Positions 1 through 5,051 of a stretch of DNA of 5,051 nucleotides are shown here, piece by piece. The position numbers and the translations under genes were made by a program. How positions within the stretch are numbered: the first letter of the stretch is position 1; the number at the start of each line of letters is the position of its first letter. Source of the stretch: a virus. Lineage: Duplodnaviria > Heunggongvirae > Uroviricota > Caudoviricetes. Where the stretch lies: the IMG/VR virus record IMGVR_UViG_2563366929_000004. The stretch is one strand, 5' to 3'. The notes below the pieces were generated by a model. It had not been told where the DNA came from. It was given only the letters and a program-made list of their open reading frames with translations, and searched no databases.

Positions 1-36
1 AGATAAAACACTCTCCAGGAAACCCGGGGCGGTTCA
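1..36 (+). mobile_element. Right terminal inverted repeat of an IS3-family insertion sequence (IS629-like); the element body lies left of the window
   Basis: The reverse complement of 12..36 (TGAACCGCCCCGGGTTTCCTGGAGA) matches 23 of 25 positions of 4846..4870 (TGAACCGCCCCGGGAATCCTGGAGA), which sits just upstream of an IS3-family orfA. Assignment to IS629 rests on recalled termini, not a search. Confidence 0.7.
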
Positions 37-803
37 ATACGGGAGAACTCATAACCGCAGTCATGACATCTGCCGGAATAGTTCGATTGAATTTGTTTTA
101 GCGCCGGATACAGTTCGCGGAATAATGCCTGTGAGCGGTTGGCATAATCCCATAGCCATACAAGGCTGTTTGCTTCTTTTGCAGAAAGCTCGTTGGTTTT
201 CTTCTCTTGTTTGCCGATGAACTCACCTTCAAGCACTACCCTGTGGATGTACTCTACTGCTTGTGGTATCTGAGATGCATCAAGCTCTTCAATACTTTCC
301 ACATTGAAACGCTGATGAATCATTGCATAAGCTTCTGGGTACATTAGATGCTTTTTGCTGACTAGCATATTTACAGCATCACGAAGCGGAGTCCTGTCAT
401 CAACAGATGTTTTCTTCCGTGCATTTGCTGCCTCTCCCTTTGTCCAGTAGTCATGCAGCACAGTAAAGCATTCTTCCTGGTACTGAATCAGTTTATCGCG
501 GATGTCAGCACGAACTTTCTCAGGGTTGATGCTGAACAGCCATCCATTTAACTTCTTCAAAGGAAGGCAGAGTAGCTTACGAAGCTTACCATCAGCGGCA
601 ACCATGTTCATATGAACACAGTTGAATTTGCTAATCTGCTTCATGAGTTTTGTTTGCTGCGTTGACCAGCTCATTCCGAGGTTTTCAACGATTGGCTTCA
701 TCGCAACATATGCAACTCCGGCAGCCATGGCGGTGATAATTTGCTGACCGTTGAATGGCACGTAAGAGGTGTTCACTGCTTCTAAAATTGCTATACTATT
801 CAT
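37..803 (-). CDS. ant: Phage antirepressor, P22 Ant-like; 3' end interrupted by the IS at 36/37, and the frame reads on into the IS
   Basis: ATG at 803..801 with GGAG about 9 nt upstream. The open frame runs to the window edge (translation starts [46 protein letters not shown]). It is not in the ORF track because no stop lies in the window. N-terminus recalled as Ant-like; position downstream of arc and divergent from mnt supports this. Confidence 0.75.
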
Positions 804-884
804 GTTGGTTTTTCTCCACGGATTTACCGACAACCGAAGCCCTGACTGTTCCAGCAGTTGGGGCTTCACTGTTTTGATTTCTTT
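804..884 (+). ncRNA. Candidate sar-like antisense RNA covering the ant ribosome-binding site and start codon
   Basis: Extended -10 (TGcTATACT, 789..797) on the + strand just inside the ant 5' end. An imperfect hairpin (836..867, GAAGCCC/GGGCTTC core plus wobble-extended stem) followed by the T-rich ACTGTTTTGATTTCTTT lies about 30-80 nt downstream. P22 makes an antisense sar RNA at the equivalent position. The 804..1035 arc-ant spacer has no ORF longer than about 10 codons on the minus strand. Confidence 0.35.
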
Positions 885-1035
885 GCCGCATCAAGCATCA
901 CTTCTGAAAACGTGCGCTTGCCACTGAATACTCTTTCTCTTCTCAATTTTTCGTTCGTGCCAAATGATTCGCCATGAACAAAATTTGGTCTTAAAATGGT
1001 AATCGCAATCTCTTTGACTACTGCATCCAAGCGAA

Positions 1036-1188
1036 TCACACCGTTACCCCCTCTCTCTTCAGGCTGTCTATCAGGCGCTTGATAACCTCTGAGTTAAACG
1101 ACCTGCACTCTTCCTTTGCCCTGCTACCGATAGCATCCTTTAACGACTGCGGCATCCTTACCAAAATCTTACTTATTTCTTTCTCCAT
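1036..1188 (-). CDS. arc: Arc-like ribbon-helix-helix transcriptional repressor (50 aa)
   Basis: ATG at 1188 is preceded by GGAGGG 5 nt upstream. The translation MEKEISKILVRMPQSLKDAIGSRAKEECRSFNSEVIKRLIDSLKREGVTV resembles P22 Arc (the RSxNSE motif and KxEG C-terminus). The ORF-track start at 1224 is a TTG extension with no RBS. Confidence 0.8.
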   Translation of the reverse strand: MEKEISKILVRMPQSLKDAIGSRAKEECRSFNSEVIKRLIDSLKREGVTV

Positions 1189-1224
1189 GTTACCCTCCAC
1201 GCAAACAACTCTTTTCGAATACAA

Positions 1225-1290
1225 AAGATAGCAAAGTGAGTATATCTAGTCAAAATTTTTTTGCATACACTTTGCTATCAAATTGAATAC
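1225..1290. promoter_or_regulatory. Divergent arc/ant and mnt promoter-operator region with a perfect 12-bp inverted repeat
   Basis: GATAGCAAAGTG (1227..1238) and its exact reverse complement CACTTTGCTATC (1268..1279) are separated by 29 bp. On the minus strand, -35 TTGACT (1253..1248), a 17-bp spacer and -10 TATCTT (1230..1225) overlap one arm. On the + strand, TTGCAT (1261..1266) and TATCAA (1276..1281) are weaker candidates around the other arm. Confidence 0.5.
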
Positions 1291-1302
1291 CAAAGGTGTT
1301 AT

Positions 1303-1551
1303 ATGGCAAAGGGTGTGTCAATTTCTCCAACTACGGTAAGAATCCCTGAATCTTTACGCGAGGCTCTTGCTGTCAGAGCATCAAAAAATGGTCGCTCTGT
1401 TAACTCCGAGATCGTCATGATTTTGCAAGCCGCGATTGATGAAGATAGGTCGCCAAAGTCAGTTGAGTCATTTGCTCAGCAAGAAGCTGATAAATTCAAA
1501 GAGGCGCTACTTGAGACGCTAAAGACCATGTATGCTAAGGATGAAAAATAA
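1303..1551 (+). CDS. mnt: Mnt-like ribbon-helix-helix repressor (82 aa)
   Basis: ATG at 1303 with AAGGTG 5 nt upstream. MAKGVSISPTTVRIPESLREALAVRASKNGRSVNSEIVMILQAAI... aligns by eye with P22 Mnt, including a similar C-terminal helix (...LLETLKTMYAK). It is divergent from arc. The ORF-track start at 1261 is a TTG extension. Confidence 0.8.
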   Translation: MAKGVSISPTTVRIPESLREALAVRASKNGRSVNSEIVMILQAAIDEDRSPKSVESFAQQEADKFKEALLETLKTMYAKDEK

Positions 1552-2087
1552 TGCTGCACACAATTCATTTCTTATGCCCTGTTAACACTGCCACTGTTGG
1601 GCAACTTCAGAACCACTGTCTCACCGCATTATCTCAAGGCGCAACTGAATTAAATATCCATATATCAAGTCAGGGAGGGGAAACTGCTGCTGGCTTTACT
1701 GCGTATAACTTTCTTAAGTCACTCCCTGTTACCGTTAGAACTCACAACATAAGCAATGTTGAATCCATAGCTAATATCGTTTTCCTGGCTGGCTCAGAAC
1801 GTTTCGCAAACCCATTATCAAGATTCCTGTTACATCCTCTATTATGGTGCTTTGCCTCCCCAGCCGCCGACCATGCCAGATTGAGAGAGTACGGGAAATG
1901 CCTCGATAACGATCTTGATCGCTTCGTTGAGACGTTCAATATCGACATCGGAACCCATATTAGGTGGGCATCCCTGATAGCAGACTCGACCATTTTGGAT
2001 GCTAACAAGGCTCTTGAGCATGGCATAATTAATTCCATAAAAACTGCAAGGCTGGCATCCAATCAGGCAAACTGGTGGGTTGTTTGA
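1551..2087 (+). CDS. ClpP-fold (S14-like) serine peptidase homologue, 178 aa
   Basis: The ATG overlaps the mnt stop (TAATG), with AAGGA about 9 nt upstream. By eye, ...LNIHISSQGGETAAGFTAYNFLKSLPVTVRTHNISNVESIANIVFLAGSERFANPLSRFLLHP... aligns with the E. coli ClpP core (YINSPGG...GQAASMGAFLLTAG...RVMIHQP). The candidate catalytic Ser (ESIAN) and His (LLHP) are conserved; an Asp lies near the expected position. Confidence 0.7.
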   Translation: MLHTIHFLCPVNTATVGQLQNHCLTALSQGATELNIHISSQGGETAAGFTAYNFLKSLPVTVRTHNISNVESIANIVFLAGSERFANPLSRFLLHPLLWCFASPAADHARLREYGKCLDNDLDRFVETFNIDIGTHIRWASLIADSTILDANKALEHGIINSIKTARLASNQANWWVV

Positions 2088-2110
2088 TGGGTAAATCATG
2101 ATTACTCCTT

Positions 2111-2138
2111 ATAAAAAACCCACCTGACGGTGGGTTTA
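2111..2138. terminator. Bidirectional Rho-independent terminator between convergent genes
   Basis: The stem AACCCACC (2117..2124) / GGTGGGTT (2129..2136) with loop TGAC is flanked by an A-tract (2111..2118) on one side and a short T run on the other. It sits between the ClpP-like stop (2087) and the YafO-like stop (2136). Confidence 0.6.
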
Positions 2139-2585
2139 GTCAAACATAGTGTTTCTAAAGTCTCTCGCATACCCTGCTAACACTCTCATTCTATTATGAT
2201 TGTTAGCAGACATGTGAGCTACAGGATGAAAAAGAGCAATCAATGAATACCTGTTCTCATCAAAAAGATTTTGTGCATAAACGAGAGCGGTATTGGATGT
2301 TTTATGCCACTGCAACTTTTGCGGTGTGCTGATATCTGTGCCATTTTTTATTGGCTCAAATTTATTTTCACCAATTGCTAAATGAAGGTGCATAAGGCCT
2401 GCATCTTCAATATCAGGAGGTCGATGATAAGAGGTGTCTCTGCCAAAATAGCTGGGCAACGTTCCCGTAGACTTGTAGATGATAAAATCATCTACAAGTG
2501 TTTGTTTTAAATCAGGAAACTCAACAAAAACCGGGGAGAAAAAATAGTCAAAACTATCCTGATTATATTCCACGGTTACTTGCAT
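2136..2585 (-). CDS. YafO-family toxin homologue (ribosome-dependent mRNA interferase family), 149 aa
   Basis: ATG at 2585 with GAGGT 6 nt upstream. Blocks ...DDFIIYKSTGTLPSYFGRD..., ...LMHLHLAIGENKFEP... and ...ALVYAQNLFDENRYSLIALFHPVAHMSANNHNRM... match recalled E. coli YafO segments (FISYKRDGVLPDIFGRD, HIHLANENNPFPP, LVYCQGAFDEQAWLLIAILKPEPHKLARDNNQM). Not verified by search. Confidence 0.7.
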   Translation of the reverse strand: MQVTVEYNQDSFDYFFSPVFVEFPDLKQTLVDDFIIYKSTGTLPSYFGRDTSYHRPPDIEDAGLMHLHLAIGENKFEPIKNGTDISTPQKLQWHKTSNTALVYAQNLFDENRYSLIALFHPVAHMSANNHNRMRVLAGYARDFRNTMFD

Positions 2586-2593
2586 GTTTTACC

Positions 2594-3160
2594 TCAGTGG
2601 AAGTTACCAGAGTGAAACACACGAGTCCCGTGCTCAGCAAGCGCACGCAAACCAGCCATATCTACGGAACTATCAAAAACAACCGGAACACATGAGCGTT
2701 GTTTAATAAGACTATTCAGGTTGGTTACGGCAGATCTGGCATCAGCAACAACGATATAGATATCTCTTGCGATCTCTTTAAAATCAGCAGAAGCTTCTTT
2801 GAATACCGATTTCATTGCCCCTTCAAGTCCTCTCAATTGATGCTCTATCAATCGAGACTTTTCTGGTTCAATGATAGACAACACATTGTCTACATTCTCA
2901 TCGGTAGCGTTTGCAAGAACACGATAAGCGTATTTCAGCATTCGAGACAATTCTTTAATCGAAGACACCGCCTCATGAAGCTCATCATTAGCCCGTTCAC
3001 TGCTGAATGAGGATTGATGGTAAGCGTGCTGAACGTTATCAGTAACAACCACCTCACAACTGAACGCAGAAGCTTGCTGTAATAGCAAACCTATTGCGAC
3101 TCCAGCTTTGGCAGCGTTCAAGCTAAACATTTCATCAATCCCATTAGTCTCATTGCTCAT
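2594..3160 (-). CDS. Hypothetical acidic 188-aa protein, upstream partner of the YafO-like toxin; family unknown
   Basis: ATG at 3160 with AAGGAGG 5 nt upstream. The ORF-track start at 3190 is a TTG extension. Its TGA stop (2596..2594) lies inside the toxin RBS (TGAGGT), leaving an 8-nt gap. No YefM/Phd, RHH or HTH signature is recognisable by eye. Confidence 0.65.
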   Translation of the reverse strand: MSNETNGIDEMFSLNAAKAGVAIGLLLQQASAFSCEVVVTDNVQHAYHQSSFSSERANDELHEAVSSIKELSRMLKYAYRVLANATDENVDNVLSIIEPEKSRLIEHQLRGLEGAMKSVFKEASADFKEIARDIYIVVADARSAVTNLNSLIKQRSCVPVVFDSSVDMAGLRALAEHGTRVFHSGNFH

Positions 3161-3227
3161 ACAAACCTCCTTCTTATCGGAGATTATCAATAGCTATGCA
3201 TCCATTGAATACACGCTATGCGCAATA

Positions 3228-3256
3228 AGTTTACGTCACGTGATATCATTATGCAA
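3228..3256 (-). promoter_or_regulatory. Putative promoter of the 188-aa/YafO-like operon with palindromes in the spacer
   Basis: On the minus strand, -35 TTGCAT (3256..3251), a 17-bp spacer and -10 TAAACT (3233..3228). The spacer holds overlapping palindromes TCACGTGA (3236..3243) and TGATATCA (3241..3248). A direct repeat GCTATGC (3193..3199 and 3215..3221) lies downstream. Confidence 0.4.
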
Positions 3257-3335
3257 CCACCGTTCTATCACCGACTAACTTTACTCCCACTCCTATACAT
3301 CATCTGGTATCCTGCGCAAAACTAAGGAGGTTGGT

Positions 3336-3686
3336 GTGAATGCTCAGTCTGTCATCATGGTTTTCCTTGGGCTGATTGTCGCAAAACTATATCCAGACTG
3401 GTGGAAAGGGGCATTAGCTACTGTCGCCATCTATTTGCTTTTATCCATCGTTAAGCGATCACTCGCTGAGACCGTAAATCAAGCAAAACGTTTCTCATTT
3501 AAGAGTTTAATAAACTATGTTACTGGGCTTATTTTTTGCCTTTCAATTCTGATCGCTTCGGCTTTTTTGCCCGTATCAATAGCTAATTTTTTTGGCGCAC
3601 CATATGAGGTAGGTTATCTATTCTCTGTTTCCTGTCTTGCCATTGCTCTTCTTTACCTGTGGACGAGATCAAAGAATAAAAATTAG
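3336..3686 (+). CDS. Small integral membrane protein (116 aa, about 4 predicted TM helices), function unknown
   Basis: GTG start at 3336 with AAGGAGG (3324..3330) 5 nt upstream. Four hydrophobic stretches (SVIMVFLGLIVAKL, ALATVAIYLLLSIV, LINYVTGLIFCLSILIASAFL, VGYLFSVSCLAIALLYLW) and a basic C-terminus (RSKNKN). Divergent from the toxin operon. Confidence 0.65.
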   Translation: MNAQSVIMVFLGLIVAKLYPDWWKGALATVAIYLLLSIVKRSLAETVNQAKRFSFKSLINYVTGLIFCLSILIASAFLPVSIANFFGAPYEVGYLFSVSCLAIALLYLWTRSKNKN

Positions 3687-3703
3687 CCATCCGTGGCTGC
3701 CAG

Positions 3704-4845
3704 TTATTGAGCTTCTTTTTGTGATGCCTGTGCGACTCTGGTGAGCGATTGTGTGACCGTACTGATCGCTCTGTCATATGCTGTGCTACCTTTTGGCGTA
3801 TTTGCCAGACGTAACAAGGCATTTCGTATAACAGGGCTTTCGTATGCCTTCGCAGCTCCTCCTACGACACCAGCAGCAGGAACAACAAACGCAGCCGTTT
3901 TTAGCATCCCCGCTAATACTGCTGCGTTTATGATGCCACCACCAACTAACAATCCATAAAGCTGCTGACCATTTAAGTTTTGAACGTTCGCTTTTGCCGC
4001 GTGTCTTGTATCGTTGAGGTATTTAATAACGCCGTCCAGTTCCTTTCCATGTACGCCTTTAAAGAAAGTTGCTGATTGCTTCCTGTTCCGGTGTAACGCA
4101 TTAATAAACTTTTCAACACTAATATTTCCAGACGGATCAGTCGCCTTATCTACAGCATTCTGAACTATGGCTGCTCGTGCGTTTTGCCTACCATTGTCAT
4201 CCAGAAGCCTGTAAAGCTGAGAACGTTCTGATGGGTTTTGGCTAAAAACGAGTTTTGTTACATCCTCAGGTGTAGCCTTGCCGCTGGCTATTGCCTTTTG
4301 AACGCGCGTTCTTCCCATCATGTCATTGAATCTAGCCCATGAGCGATCAACCCTAGACATATTGGCAGCTTCTTCTGAGCCTAGTTTTTGGGATACTGCT
4401 TTTTTCATATCCGCTGTATATGCCTTGTAGACAATATCGCTGGCTTTCTGGAGCGTGTCTTTATCAACAGTCTCGTTTGAATTCATGAACCGCTTTCGAA
4501 GGTCAGTTCTGTTTTCTCTCGCCAGACGCAGGTCATTGGGTCCGCTGGTGATATCGTCTTTAAATTGCTGCAAGACTTTTACCGCGGCTCTATCCTGAGA
4601 TTTGCCCGGGCGGCTTAACACGGCAATCTGATTGTCGATAGCTTTTACCGTGTTTGAGAGATCGACAGGGGTATCCCCCATAGCGTCAATTATGCGGTTA
4701 TATCGCTTTCCTGCTGCCTCAATGAATTTTTGTTGCCCTTTAGTCGCAGATTCATAAAGCTGTTTATCAGAAATGCCACCCAGACCATCGCTAAATGTTC
4801 TGACTAAATTTTCTCGTGCTTGTTGTTGATTCAGCCGATTCTTAC
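3704..4845 (-). pseudogene. 5'-truncated gene for a large phage protein (possibly a gp16-like DNA-ejection protein), interrupted by the IS at 4845/4846
   Basis: The frame stays open from 3704 up through 4845 and into the IS inverted repeat; the first in-frame stop upstream (4871..4873) lies inside the IS. The first in-frame ATG is at 4681, the 325-aa ORF in the track. The C-terminal part has a Gly/Ala-rich hydrophobic stretch (LYGLLVGGGIINAAVLAGMLKTAAFVVPAAGVVGGAAKAY). The product call rests only on position relative to the immI genes. Confidence 0.5.
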
Positions 4846-5051
4846 TGAACCGCCCCGGGAATCCTGGAGACTAAACTTCCTGAGAAAGAGGTAAACAGGA
4901 TGACTAAAAATACTCGTTTTTCCCCCGAAGTCCGTCAACGGGCAGTCCGTATGGTTCTGGAAAGTCAGAGCGAATATGACTCACAATGGGCGACAATTTG
5001 TTCCATTGCTCCAAAGATTGGCTGTACGCCGGAGACTCTGCGTGTCTGGGT
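4846..5051 (+). mobile_element. Left end of an IS3-family insertion sequence (IS629-like), running off the window
   Basis: Terminal repeat TGAACCGCCCCGGGAATCCTGGAGA at 4846..4870, followed 29 bp later by the orfA start. It is the inverted counterpart of 12..36. Confidence 0.8.
4900..5051 (+). CDS. IS3-family transposase OrfA (IS629-like), N-terminal part; partial
   Basis: ATG at 4900 with AGAGG about 10 nt upstream. Translation [50 protein letters not shown] matches the recalled IS629/IS1203-type OrfA N-terminus with its helix-turn-helix region. Confidence 0.85.

Follow-up and report, generated by a model that had tools for sequence, protein, structure and literature searches.

A small predicted membrane protein in the sieA slot of P22-like prophages as a candidate DNA-entry exclusion protein

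The 116-aa gene analyzed here lies in a 5,051-nt stretch of viral DNA (the window, i.e., the whole stretch that was analyzed), occupies the place that sieA has in phage P22, and is preceded by a nearly identical leader. Its product is predicted to be a four-helix inner-membrane protein and is not a detectable homologue of SieA, as judged from sequence and profile comparisons. At a probability of about 45%, we favor the interpretation that it may be an analogue of SieA, although not a homologue, and may block the entry of DNA. Among the explanations weighed below, such a SieA-like block is the likeliest, because the gene sits in SieA's socket behind SieA's leader, its product has a comparable predicted topology, and its linkage to ejection genes is constant.

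Genomic setting of the 116-aa gene

Positions 36-4845 of the window are 100% identical to a prophage of Escherichia coli S88, whose site adjoins tRNA-Arg and yfdC, and the same segment is also present in APEC O1 and further strains. The S88 prophage is P22-like (it carries P22-type coat, gp4, gp10, gp7, gp20, gp16 and tailspike genes), and the window spans its interval from gene 16 to the tailspike gene (Table 1). This interval was named the "ant moron" by Villafane et al. (PMC2629481), and the 2008 map of the region already drew 'unique' genes there in the APEC O1 and UTI89 prophages (PMC2629481). The order in P22, in the same orientation, is ant, arc (-), mnt, orf59, sieA (+) and gene 16 (-). 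Hence, P22 sieA shares position and strand with the 116-aa gene, both being on the far side of mnt/arc/ant and convergent with gene 16, with a stop-to-stop gap of 17 bp for the 116-aa gene and 22 bp in P22. Comparison of the S88 and P22 maps likewise placed the gene between the homologues of genes 16 and 9, adjoining gene 16.

Table 1. Features of the window and of the 116-aa gene product (residue numbers refer to the 116-aa form)
Feature	Position	Strand	Basis or remark
IS3-family ends	1-35 and 4846 onward (to 5051)		
ant	to 803	-	
sar antisense RNA, immI region	804-870	+	Rfam RF00262, 83.9 bits
57-aa ORF	866-1039	-	
arc	1036-1224	-	
mnt-like gene	1261-1551	+	
ClpP-like 178-aa gene	1551-2087	+	
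YafO-like toxin gene	2136-2585	-	
YafO cassette (YafO-like gene, 188-aa partner gene, upstream region)	2138-3299	-	phiv205-1 comparison, L005-L008
188-aa partner gene, upstream of the YafO-like gene	2594-3160	-	
sieA-slot leader TGGTATCCTGCNCAAAACTAAGGAGGTTGGTGTG	3305-3338	+	33/34 columns invariant in four-gene comparison
Shine-Dalgarno sequence AAGGAGG	3324-3330	+	sequence; 5 nt ahead of GTG
116-aa gene, stop codon included	3336-3686	+	GTG start; predicted four-helix inner-membrane protein
Hydrophobic helix 1, residues 3-19	3342-3392	+	hydropathy, AlphaFold2
Hydrophobic helix 2, residues 23-39	3402-3452	+	hydropathy, AlphaFold2
Central loop, residues 40-61, 5 Lys/Arg, predicted cytoplasmic	3453-3518	+	hydropathy/charge
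Hydrophobic helix 3, residues 62-78	3519-3569	+	hydropathy, AlphaFold2
Hydrophobic helix 4, residues 92-108	3609-3659	+	hydropathy, AlphaFold2
Short hairpin AGCCATCCGTGGCT between the two convergent stop codons	3685-3698	.	sequence
gp16-type DNA-ejection protein, C-terminal part	3704-4845	-	PHROG 770/29117; RefSeq 'P22-gp16 family phage DNA ejection protein'

The two flanks of the window are directly oriented ends of IS629/IS1203-like (IS3-family) elements: within ant there is the right end of one copy, and within the gp16 gene, which is cut by the IS at 4846, there are the left end and orfA of another. The two ends thus outline a composite-transposon-like unit that encloses the whole ant moron. 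The gp16/IS junction of the window was not found in any complete E. coli genome of the collection. Since the sar RNA is present, the IS in ant seems to be the only lesion in the arc/ant control circuit.

Start codon and family of the 116-aa protein

The ORF on the plus strand, with its GTG start and strong ribosome binding site as described in the initial annotation, was borne out by the ORF list, the sequence and the comparison with relatives. GTG 3336 is the first possible start downstream of an in-frame TAA (3276-3278). All close homologues keep the Shine-Dalgarno sequence, either in full (AAGGAGG) or as GGAGG; in the copies from Yersinia and Edwardsiella and in further E. coli copies the GTG is kept with it, including cases in which the more distant upstream DNA is unrelated. 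RefSeq (WP_011703616.1) gives a 109-aa form from the internal ATG 3357, which cuts helix 1 (in the window and in locus L001, 10258-10587), and some gene callers lengthen relatives to 129-130 aa from upstream ATGs. In the homologue P0006, Met8 is replaced by Ile, so that the RefSeq start is missing there, and the four remote homologues (37-40% identity) all open with MNxQ at the aligned position. Taken with the conserved Shine-Dalgarno sequence and GTG, these features make the 116-aa form the best-supported start, and the RefSeq 109-aa start is probably wrong. The dN/dS values (0.15 for the comparison with Yersinia, 0.35-0.52 for those with close copies) indicate a real gene under purifying selection.

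The family is narrow, as 5.8 billion non-redundant proteins contain 24 clusters of it at 90% identity. When 1.84 billion representatives were searched exhaustively with an HMM, only 7 family proteins came up, and a profile search of the 5.8 billion proteins added solely the chimeric P0037. All members with an organism name come from Enterobacterales and all are annotated as hypothetical. At least 1,000 recorded contigs encode precisely this 116-aa sequence, and the gene is carried by 227 of 5,426 complete E. coli genomes (about 4%), including the ST95 K1 ExPEC/APEC strains S88 and APEC O1. When 50,697 phage records were searched by tblastn with the 116-aa protein no match was obtained, and a literature search by protein accession found nothing. 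The 131-aa P0037 (L033, 1695-2090) has only its first 23 residues (MQGQTIIIILLGLIVAKLYPDWW) in common with the family; the remainder is a different multi-helix body, and its gene is also convergent with a gp16-like gene. Hence, helix 1 and the AKLYPDWW turn behave like a module that can be separated from the rest.

Predicted membrane architecture

The four hydrophobic helices that had been proposed were recovered by hydropathy, and AlphaFold2 also gave four, at low confidence. In a simple hydropathy script the four segments had 17-residue Kyte-Doolittle means of 1.76-2.46, and four such segments were found in every family member. The AlphaFold2 helices were at residues 3-18, 23-47, 55-85 and 90-115, with a pLDDT of only 58 and 62 for the two alignments used. 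Helix 1 ends with the family-invariant K17-L18-Y19-P20, and helix 4 is followed by the basic tail RSKNKN (the protein ends in LYLWTRSKNKN). The Lys/Arg residues are concentrated in the central loop (five) and the C-terminal tail (three), with none in the two short loops; the other members have the same charge bias, their short loops being nearly free of Lys/Arg. From this distribution a topology with both termini in the cytoplasm is predicted. The extramembrane loops would be very short (3, 22 and 13 residues).

Searches against curated models gave no assignment. There was no match for the 116-aa protein in Pfam or PHROGs at E <= 0.01 or in PADLOC at E <= 0.1, and NCBIfam gave just two far-sub-threshold matches to membrane proteins (the best at 17.6 bits against a cut-off of 200). 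The best Pfam score was to Phage_holin_3_6 (E 0.065, under its cut-off). No significant match to a curated model of holins, RexB-like proteins or other catalogued phage membrane or defence proteins was obtained, and a sequence-profile search of the PDB gave no match. A Foldseek comparison with BFVD returned nothing below E 0.59, and its top 'holin' labels were discarded as meaningless.

Comparison with SieA

The 116-aa protein and SieA are alike in the near-identical upstream leader, Shine-Dalgarno sequence and GTG start of their genes, in being small polytopic inner-membrane proteins (predicted here for the 116-aa protein), and in being carried by P22-like prophages of Enterobacterales. The predicted four helices, basic central loop, basic tail and cytoplasmic termini match the published topology of SieA types B and C; across its types, SieA is an integral membrane protein that has 3-4 transmembrane helices and ends in the cytoplasm. 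In contrast, the 116-aa protein is shorter (116 aa vs 162-212 aa), its central loop has 22 residues vs about 55, and the gp16 subtype of its family is distinct from that which accompanies SieA types A and B.

No homology was detected at the sequence level. BLASTP of the 116-aa protein against P22 SieA gave a non-significant E of 0.29. The family profile was then compared by hhalign with a SieA alignment of nine type A sequences and the type B sequence of prophage HS1 (located in E. coli HS), and the probability was 1%, falling to 0.2% with a more diverse family profile. The conserved cytoplasmic C-terminal SieA motif FxRYPxEAxxFNK (PMC10883804) is clear in the type A and B alignment and absent from the 116-aa protein, as its cytoplasmic tail has just 6-8 residues. 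The local copy of Pfam is without the SieA model PF26849 (P22 SieA itself matches nothing in it), so that the Pfam result is silent on SieA. A segment of the protein, KRFSFKSLINYITGL, resembled SieA KFSPxxFENRITDA and was rejected, since the likeness was gone once remote members had entered the family profile. The earlier proposal of a SieA-like protein at this position thus stands in part: slot, orientation, leader and GTG match those of P22 sieA, but SieA homology is not detectable and the motif is absent. Hence, an exclusion function is suggested by position and architecture and not by membership in the SieA family.

The 2024 SieA paper described three SieA types, with most P22-like phages being without sieA; in the survey of Leavitt et al. 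(2024), sieA was present in just 22 of 66 P22-like phages, and the authors could not account for the exclusion of phages with widely differing ejection proteins by SieA proteins that themselves differ widely.

A common leader serves unrelated genes

The 34-bp leader is common to the window gene, P22 sieA, epsilon34 gene 14 (a homologue of hkcB) and an unannotated 62-aa ORF of phiv205-1. The four leaders are identical, GTG included, save at the N, and the likeness among the four genes ends directly past the GTG. The leader holds the sequence TGGTATCCT (TGnTATCCT, 3305-3313), which may be read as an extended -10-like element, together with the Shine-Dalgarno sequence and the start codon. A promoter scan found no sigma-70 site upstream on the plus strand. 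In P22, sieA with 85 bp of upstream DNA suffices for exclusion (PMC10883804), so that the expression signals there should lie in or near the leader, and we infer that the 116-aa gene is expressed from its leader as well. A literature search for PsieA gave nothing beyond the 2024 SieA paper and unrelated papers. At the other end of the gene, the hairpin between the convergent stop codons is terminator-like on the minus strand, with a T-run after it, and related hairpins are found at the same junction in L003, L004, L005 and L027.

A scan of IMG/VR for the exact leader gave at least 120 stretches, 118 of them with complete occupants. These 118 listed occupants fall into 12 unrelated families; by number of loci among the matches listed, they are HkcB-like proteins with one helix and a coiled coil (27), a 129-aa secreted protein (24), a 62-aa protein with two helices (12), SieA type A (9), a 75-aa protein with two helices (9), a 109-aa protein with one helix and a coiled coil (8), the 116-aa family (6), a 106-aa protein (6), a 149-aa protein (5), a 99-aa protein with a signal-like N-terminus (5), a soluble 140-aa protein (5) and a 68-aa protein (2). 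At least one hydrophobic 17-mer was present in 108 of the 118 listed occupants, and 5 more had a signal-like N-terminus as judged by eye, which suggests that the slot specializes in small envelope proteins. HkcB of HK620, its epsilon34 counterpart gp14 and the 62-, 75-, 106-, 109-, 129- and 149-aa families share with the 116-aa protein the leader, the gene-16 junction, the small size and the envelope targeting, but their sequences are unrelated and their architectures differ (single-pass with a coiled coil, two-helix hairpins, secreted). No description of a shared leader across non-homologous occupants was found in the literature searched. As a non-assembly gene between genes 16 and 9, at a site of variable occupancy and with its own leader and Shine-Dalgarno sequence, the 116-aa gene fits the definition of an ant-moron gene, and it would be transcribed independently.

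Two of the other occupants are of separate interest. The phiv205-1 ORF of 62 aa (MN340231.1, ~12548-12736; L027, 4537-4725) has two hydrophobic helices, stands behind a sieA-type leader and is convergent with a gp16 homologue; the same family occurs in 12 IMG/VR contigs among the matches listed. The 129-132-aa protein with an N-terminal signal peptide (strain D72, L030, 2540-2938; 24 IMG/VR loci listed) is among the commonest slot occupants and is found behind both versions of the leader and on several gp16 types.

The YafO-like and ClpP-like neighbors

The initial annotation had considered the 116-aa protein as a membrane component of the adjacent toxin module, sharing a divergent control region of 145 bp with it. 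The figure of 145 bp holds only up to TTG 3190, where the longest ORF of the 188-aa partner starts; the gap is 175 bp to ATG 3160, which is the RefSeq start and is preceded by its own AAGGAGG. Furthermore, the presumed shared control region is really the junction of two cassettes, with about 36 bp of sieA-slot leader and about 139 bp of the YafO cassette. Phage phiv205-1 shows identity to the window as far as 2137 and then from about 3297-3300 onward, with two unrelated genes between these points, and in four E. coli contigs (L005-L008) the YafO cassette is absent and the ClpP-like gene is 55 bp upstream of the membrane gene on the same strand. These borders, together with the absence in L005-L008, define a separate cassette of 1.16 kb.

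Consistent co-occurrence of the membrane gene with the toxin pair was not observed either. In the 5,426 complete E. coli genomes, the YafO pair was present in 55, all of them with copies at least 99% identical and of one lineage, and the two were side by side in only 51 of the 227 genomes that carry the 116-aa gene, these 51 representing one near-clonal prophage lineage. The pair was not found in any other context of the 116-aa family that was examined. A YafO homologue is present in phage HK639, yet no phage record, that of HK639 included, encodes the membrane gene. That the 116-aa protein might be the membrane part of a 188-aa/YafO-like module under a shared divergent promoter region is suggested by the local geometry only, i.e., two divergent genes 175 bp apart, and with the cassette borders (2137/2138 and ~3299/3300) and the poor co-occurrence set against this geometry we find this explanation scarcely credible.

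A membrane partner of the ClpP-like 178-aa protein, in an NfeD-like split membrane protease, would agree with the arrangement in L005-L008 and with the fact that only the YafO cassette separates the two genes in the window. The ClpP-like gene, however, is absent in the Yersinia, Edwardsiella, satellite-island and remote-homologue contexts, and it is also present in phiv205-1 with the unrelated 62-aa occupant, so that this role is very unlikely. The ClpP-like and YafO partner readings were both rejected on co-occurrence.

Some features of these neighbors merit mention in their own right. The YafO-like toxin is paired with the 188-aa upstream protein (phrog_8416, no Pfam match) and not with a short YafN-type antitoxin, and a distant copy is present in Escherichia phage HK639. 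The ClpP-fold gene and the mnt-like repressor gene overlap at the stop of the latter, so that the two may be translationally coupled; phage records label the ClpP-fold product 'head maturation protease', although its gene is part of the ant moron and remote from the head genes.

Association with one gp16 subtype

A convergent gp16-like gene was found 16-23 bp downstream in each of the 33 family loci examined, among them those of Yersinia and Edwardsiella and relatives with as little as 37% identity; this set takes in the 25-locus set, the E. coli loci L029 and L031, six IMG/VR copies and L033 (P0037). The gp16 was of one subtype in all 32 typed loci, the gp16-like gene of L033 being left out of the typing. 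Members of this subtype are 61-100% identical to the C-terminal half encoded in the window and are of one type over almost the full length, whereas the P22 and HS1 gp16 proteins, the partners of SieA types A and B, have only about 30% identity to it. No description of the tie of an occupant family to one gp16 subtype was found in the literature searched.

The association is one-way. The same gp16 subtype also accompanies the 106-aa occupant in the isolated phage N7 and the 132-aa secreted protein in E. coli strain D72, and the S88-type subtype is present in about 405 complete E. coli genomes vs the 227 with the 116-aa gene. Among the IMG/VR matches listed, the 116-aa family was on S88-type gp16 in 6 of 6 loci, SieA on P22/HS1-type gp16 in 9 of 9 and HkcB-like occupants on epsilon34-type gp16 in 23 of 24, and several other occupant families were on two or three gp16 types. 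The occupant-gp16 association is therefore a tendency and not a rule, in a sample that is redundant and with kinship ignored.

These data bear on whether the 116-aa protein could serve its own ejection proteins, either as an immunity protein or chaperone that shields the membrane of the producing cell against the membrane-active gp16 of this subtype or as a factor that this gp16 needs. That the gene keeps exclusively to one gp16 subtype, even among deeply diverged members, would agree with such a role, as would the travelling of the gene with gp14/gp7/gp20/gp16 in islands without head genes. Since the same subtype occurs with unrelated occupants, however, gp16 does not need the 116-aa gene, and the antisense orientation of the gene relative to the late operon would be poor for co-expression with gp16. 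We consider a role of this kind improbable.

Possible function of the 116-aa protein

In the mechanism that we propose, the 116-aa gene would be one of the alleles that P22-like prophages have at the sieA slot, and the slot would be a small moron with a conserved leader, from which it is expressed in the direction opposite to the late operon. A prophage or a satellite island would express the protein against incoming P22-like phages, and the incoming DNA would be stopped when it crosses the inner membrane, by interference with the gp16/gp20 ejection-protein conduit or its membrane docking, as SieA does. This exclusion role would have been reached without detectable homology to SieA. Small phage- or prophage-encoded inner-membrane proteins that block DNA entry after adsorption are known from other systems, such as T4 Imm and HK97 gp15, which differ from the 116-aa protein in the number of helices and in the injection machineries that they target, and to which no homology came up in the searches run.

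Several observations count for exclusion: the position and orientation of P22 sieA, 33 of 34 leader bases, a topology like that of types B and C, the single gp16 subtype, the slot with its 12 families of envelope proteins among the matches listed, purifying selection, and the satellite-like islands, which place the gene beside Abi and other variable genes. Against it count the lack of SieA homology, the absent motif, loops that leave little surface for protein contacts, no carrier among the 50,697 phage records and no sigma-70 site on the plus strand; in addition, the gp16 linkage could be plain adjacency. The other occupants of the slot also count against it: they include single-pass proteins with a coiled coil, periplasmic proteins and even soluble ones, so that occupancy does not fix function. 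Among the slot occupants SieA is the one that has been tested, and it blocks DNA entry at the inner membrane; mutations with which P22-like phages escape this block map to gp16 and gp20.

The protein might instead be an envelope-acting moron product with another job, i.e., an abortive-infection or depolarising effector, a protein directed at another phage class, or one that changes the host envelope, with no P22-type block of DNA entry. In keeping with this, function is known for SieA only among the 12 unrelated slot families (matches listed), the 116-aa protein has no homology to any Sie protein, its faint and non-significant holin-like Pfam scores have an E of about 0.07, and the ant morons are said to 'have non-identical functions' (PMC2629481). 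Such a job would leave aside the leader, position and topology shared with SieA and the strict linkage to ejection-protein genes in two kinds of mobile element, and the presence of the gene in about 4% of complete E. coli genomes and on at least 1,000 contigs argues against a lone toxic effector. We regard another envelope function as quite possible, although not as the most probable outcome.

A broader proposal is that the sieA slot may be a conserved expression socket, defined by its fixed leader and gene-16 junction, in which at least 12 unrelated small envelope proteins are swapped, each tending to one gp16 type, and that the 116-aa family may be an exclusion protein matched to S88-type ejection proteins that also rides with gp14/gp7/gp20/gp16 in satellite islands without head genes. 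As a whole we advance this proposal as doubtful. If other P22-like phages do fill the socket with non-homologous membrane proteins, DNA-entry exclusion may be near-universal in the group. If exclusion by the 116-aa protein is true, this four-helix form, which has hardly any surface outside the membrane, would offer a minimal system in which to ask whether the block requires gp16, gp20 or a host protein, for example YajC. Because the gene is common, including in strains S88 and APEC O1, it could also affect the host range of P22-like phages in phage therapy.

Satellite-like islands that carry the gene

Besides the prophages, the gene and its relatives were observed in satellite-like islands of about 17 kb (L032, 10264-28740, in E. 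coli EC-10 at tRNA-Thr; L010-L014, L029-L031 and L004 (Edwardsiella)). No satellite with its own ejection proteins was found in the literature searched. The islands encode an integrase, an AlpA-type HTH protein, AntA/B, Ash, a TOPRIM-DUF927 primase, PerC and Abi, and they also carry P22-type gp14 (DUF2824), gp7, gp20, gp16 and the slot gene, whereas genes for head and tail are missing. Three or more chromosomal sites serve for their integration.
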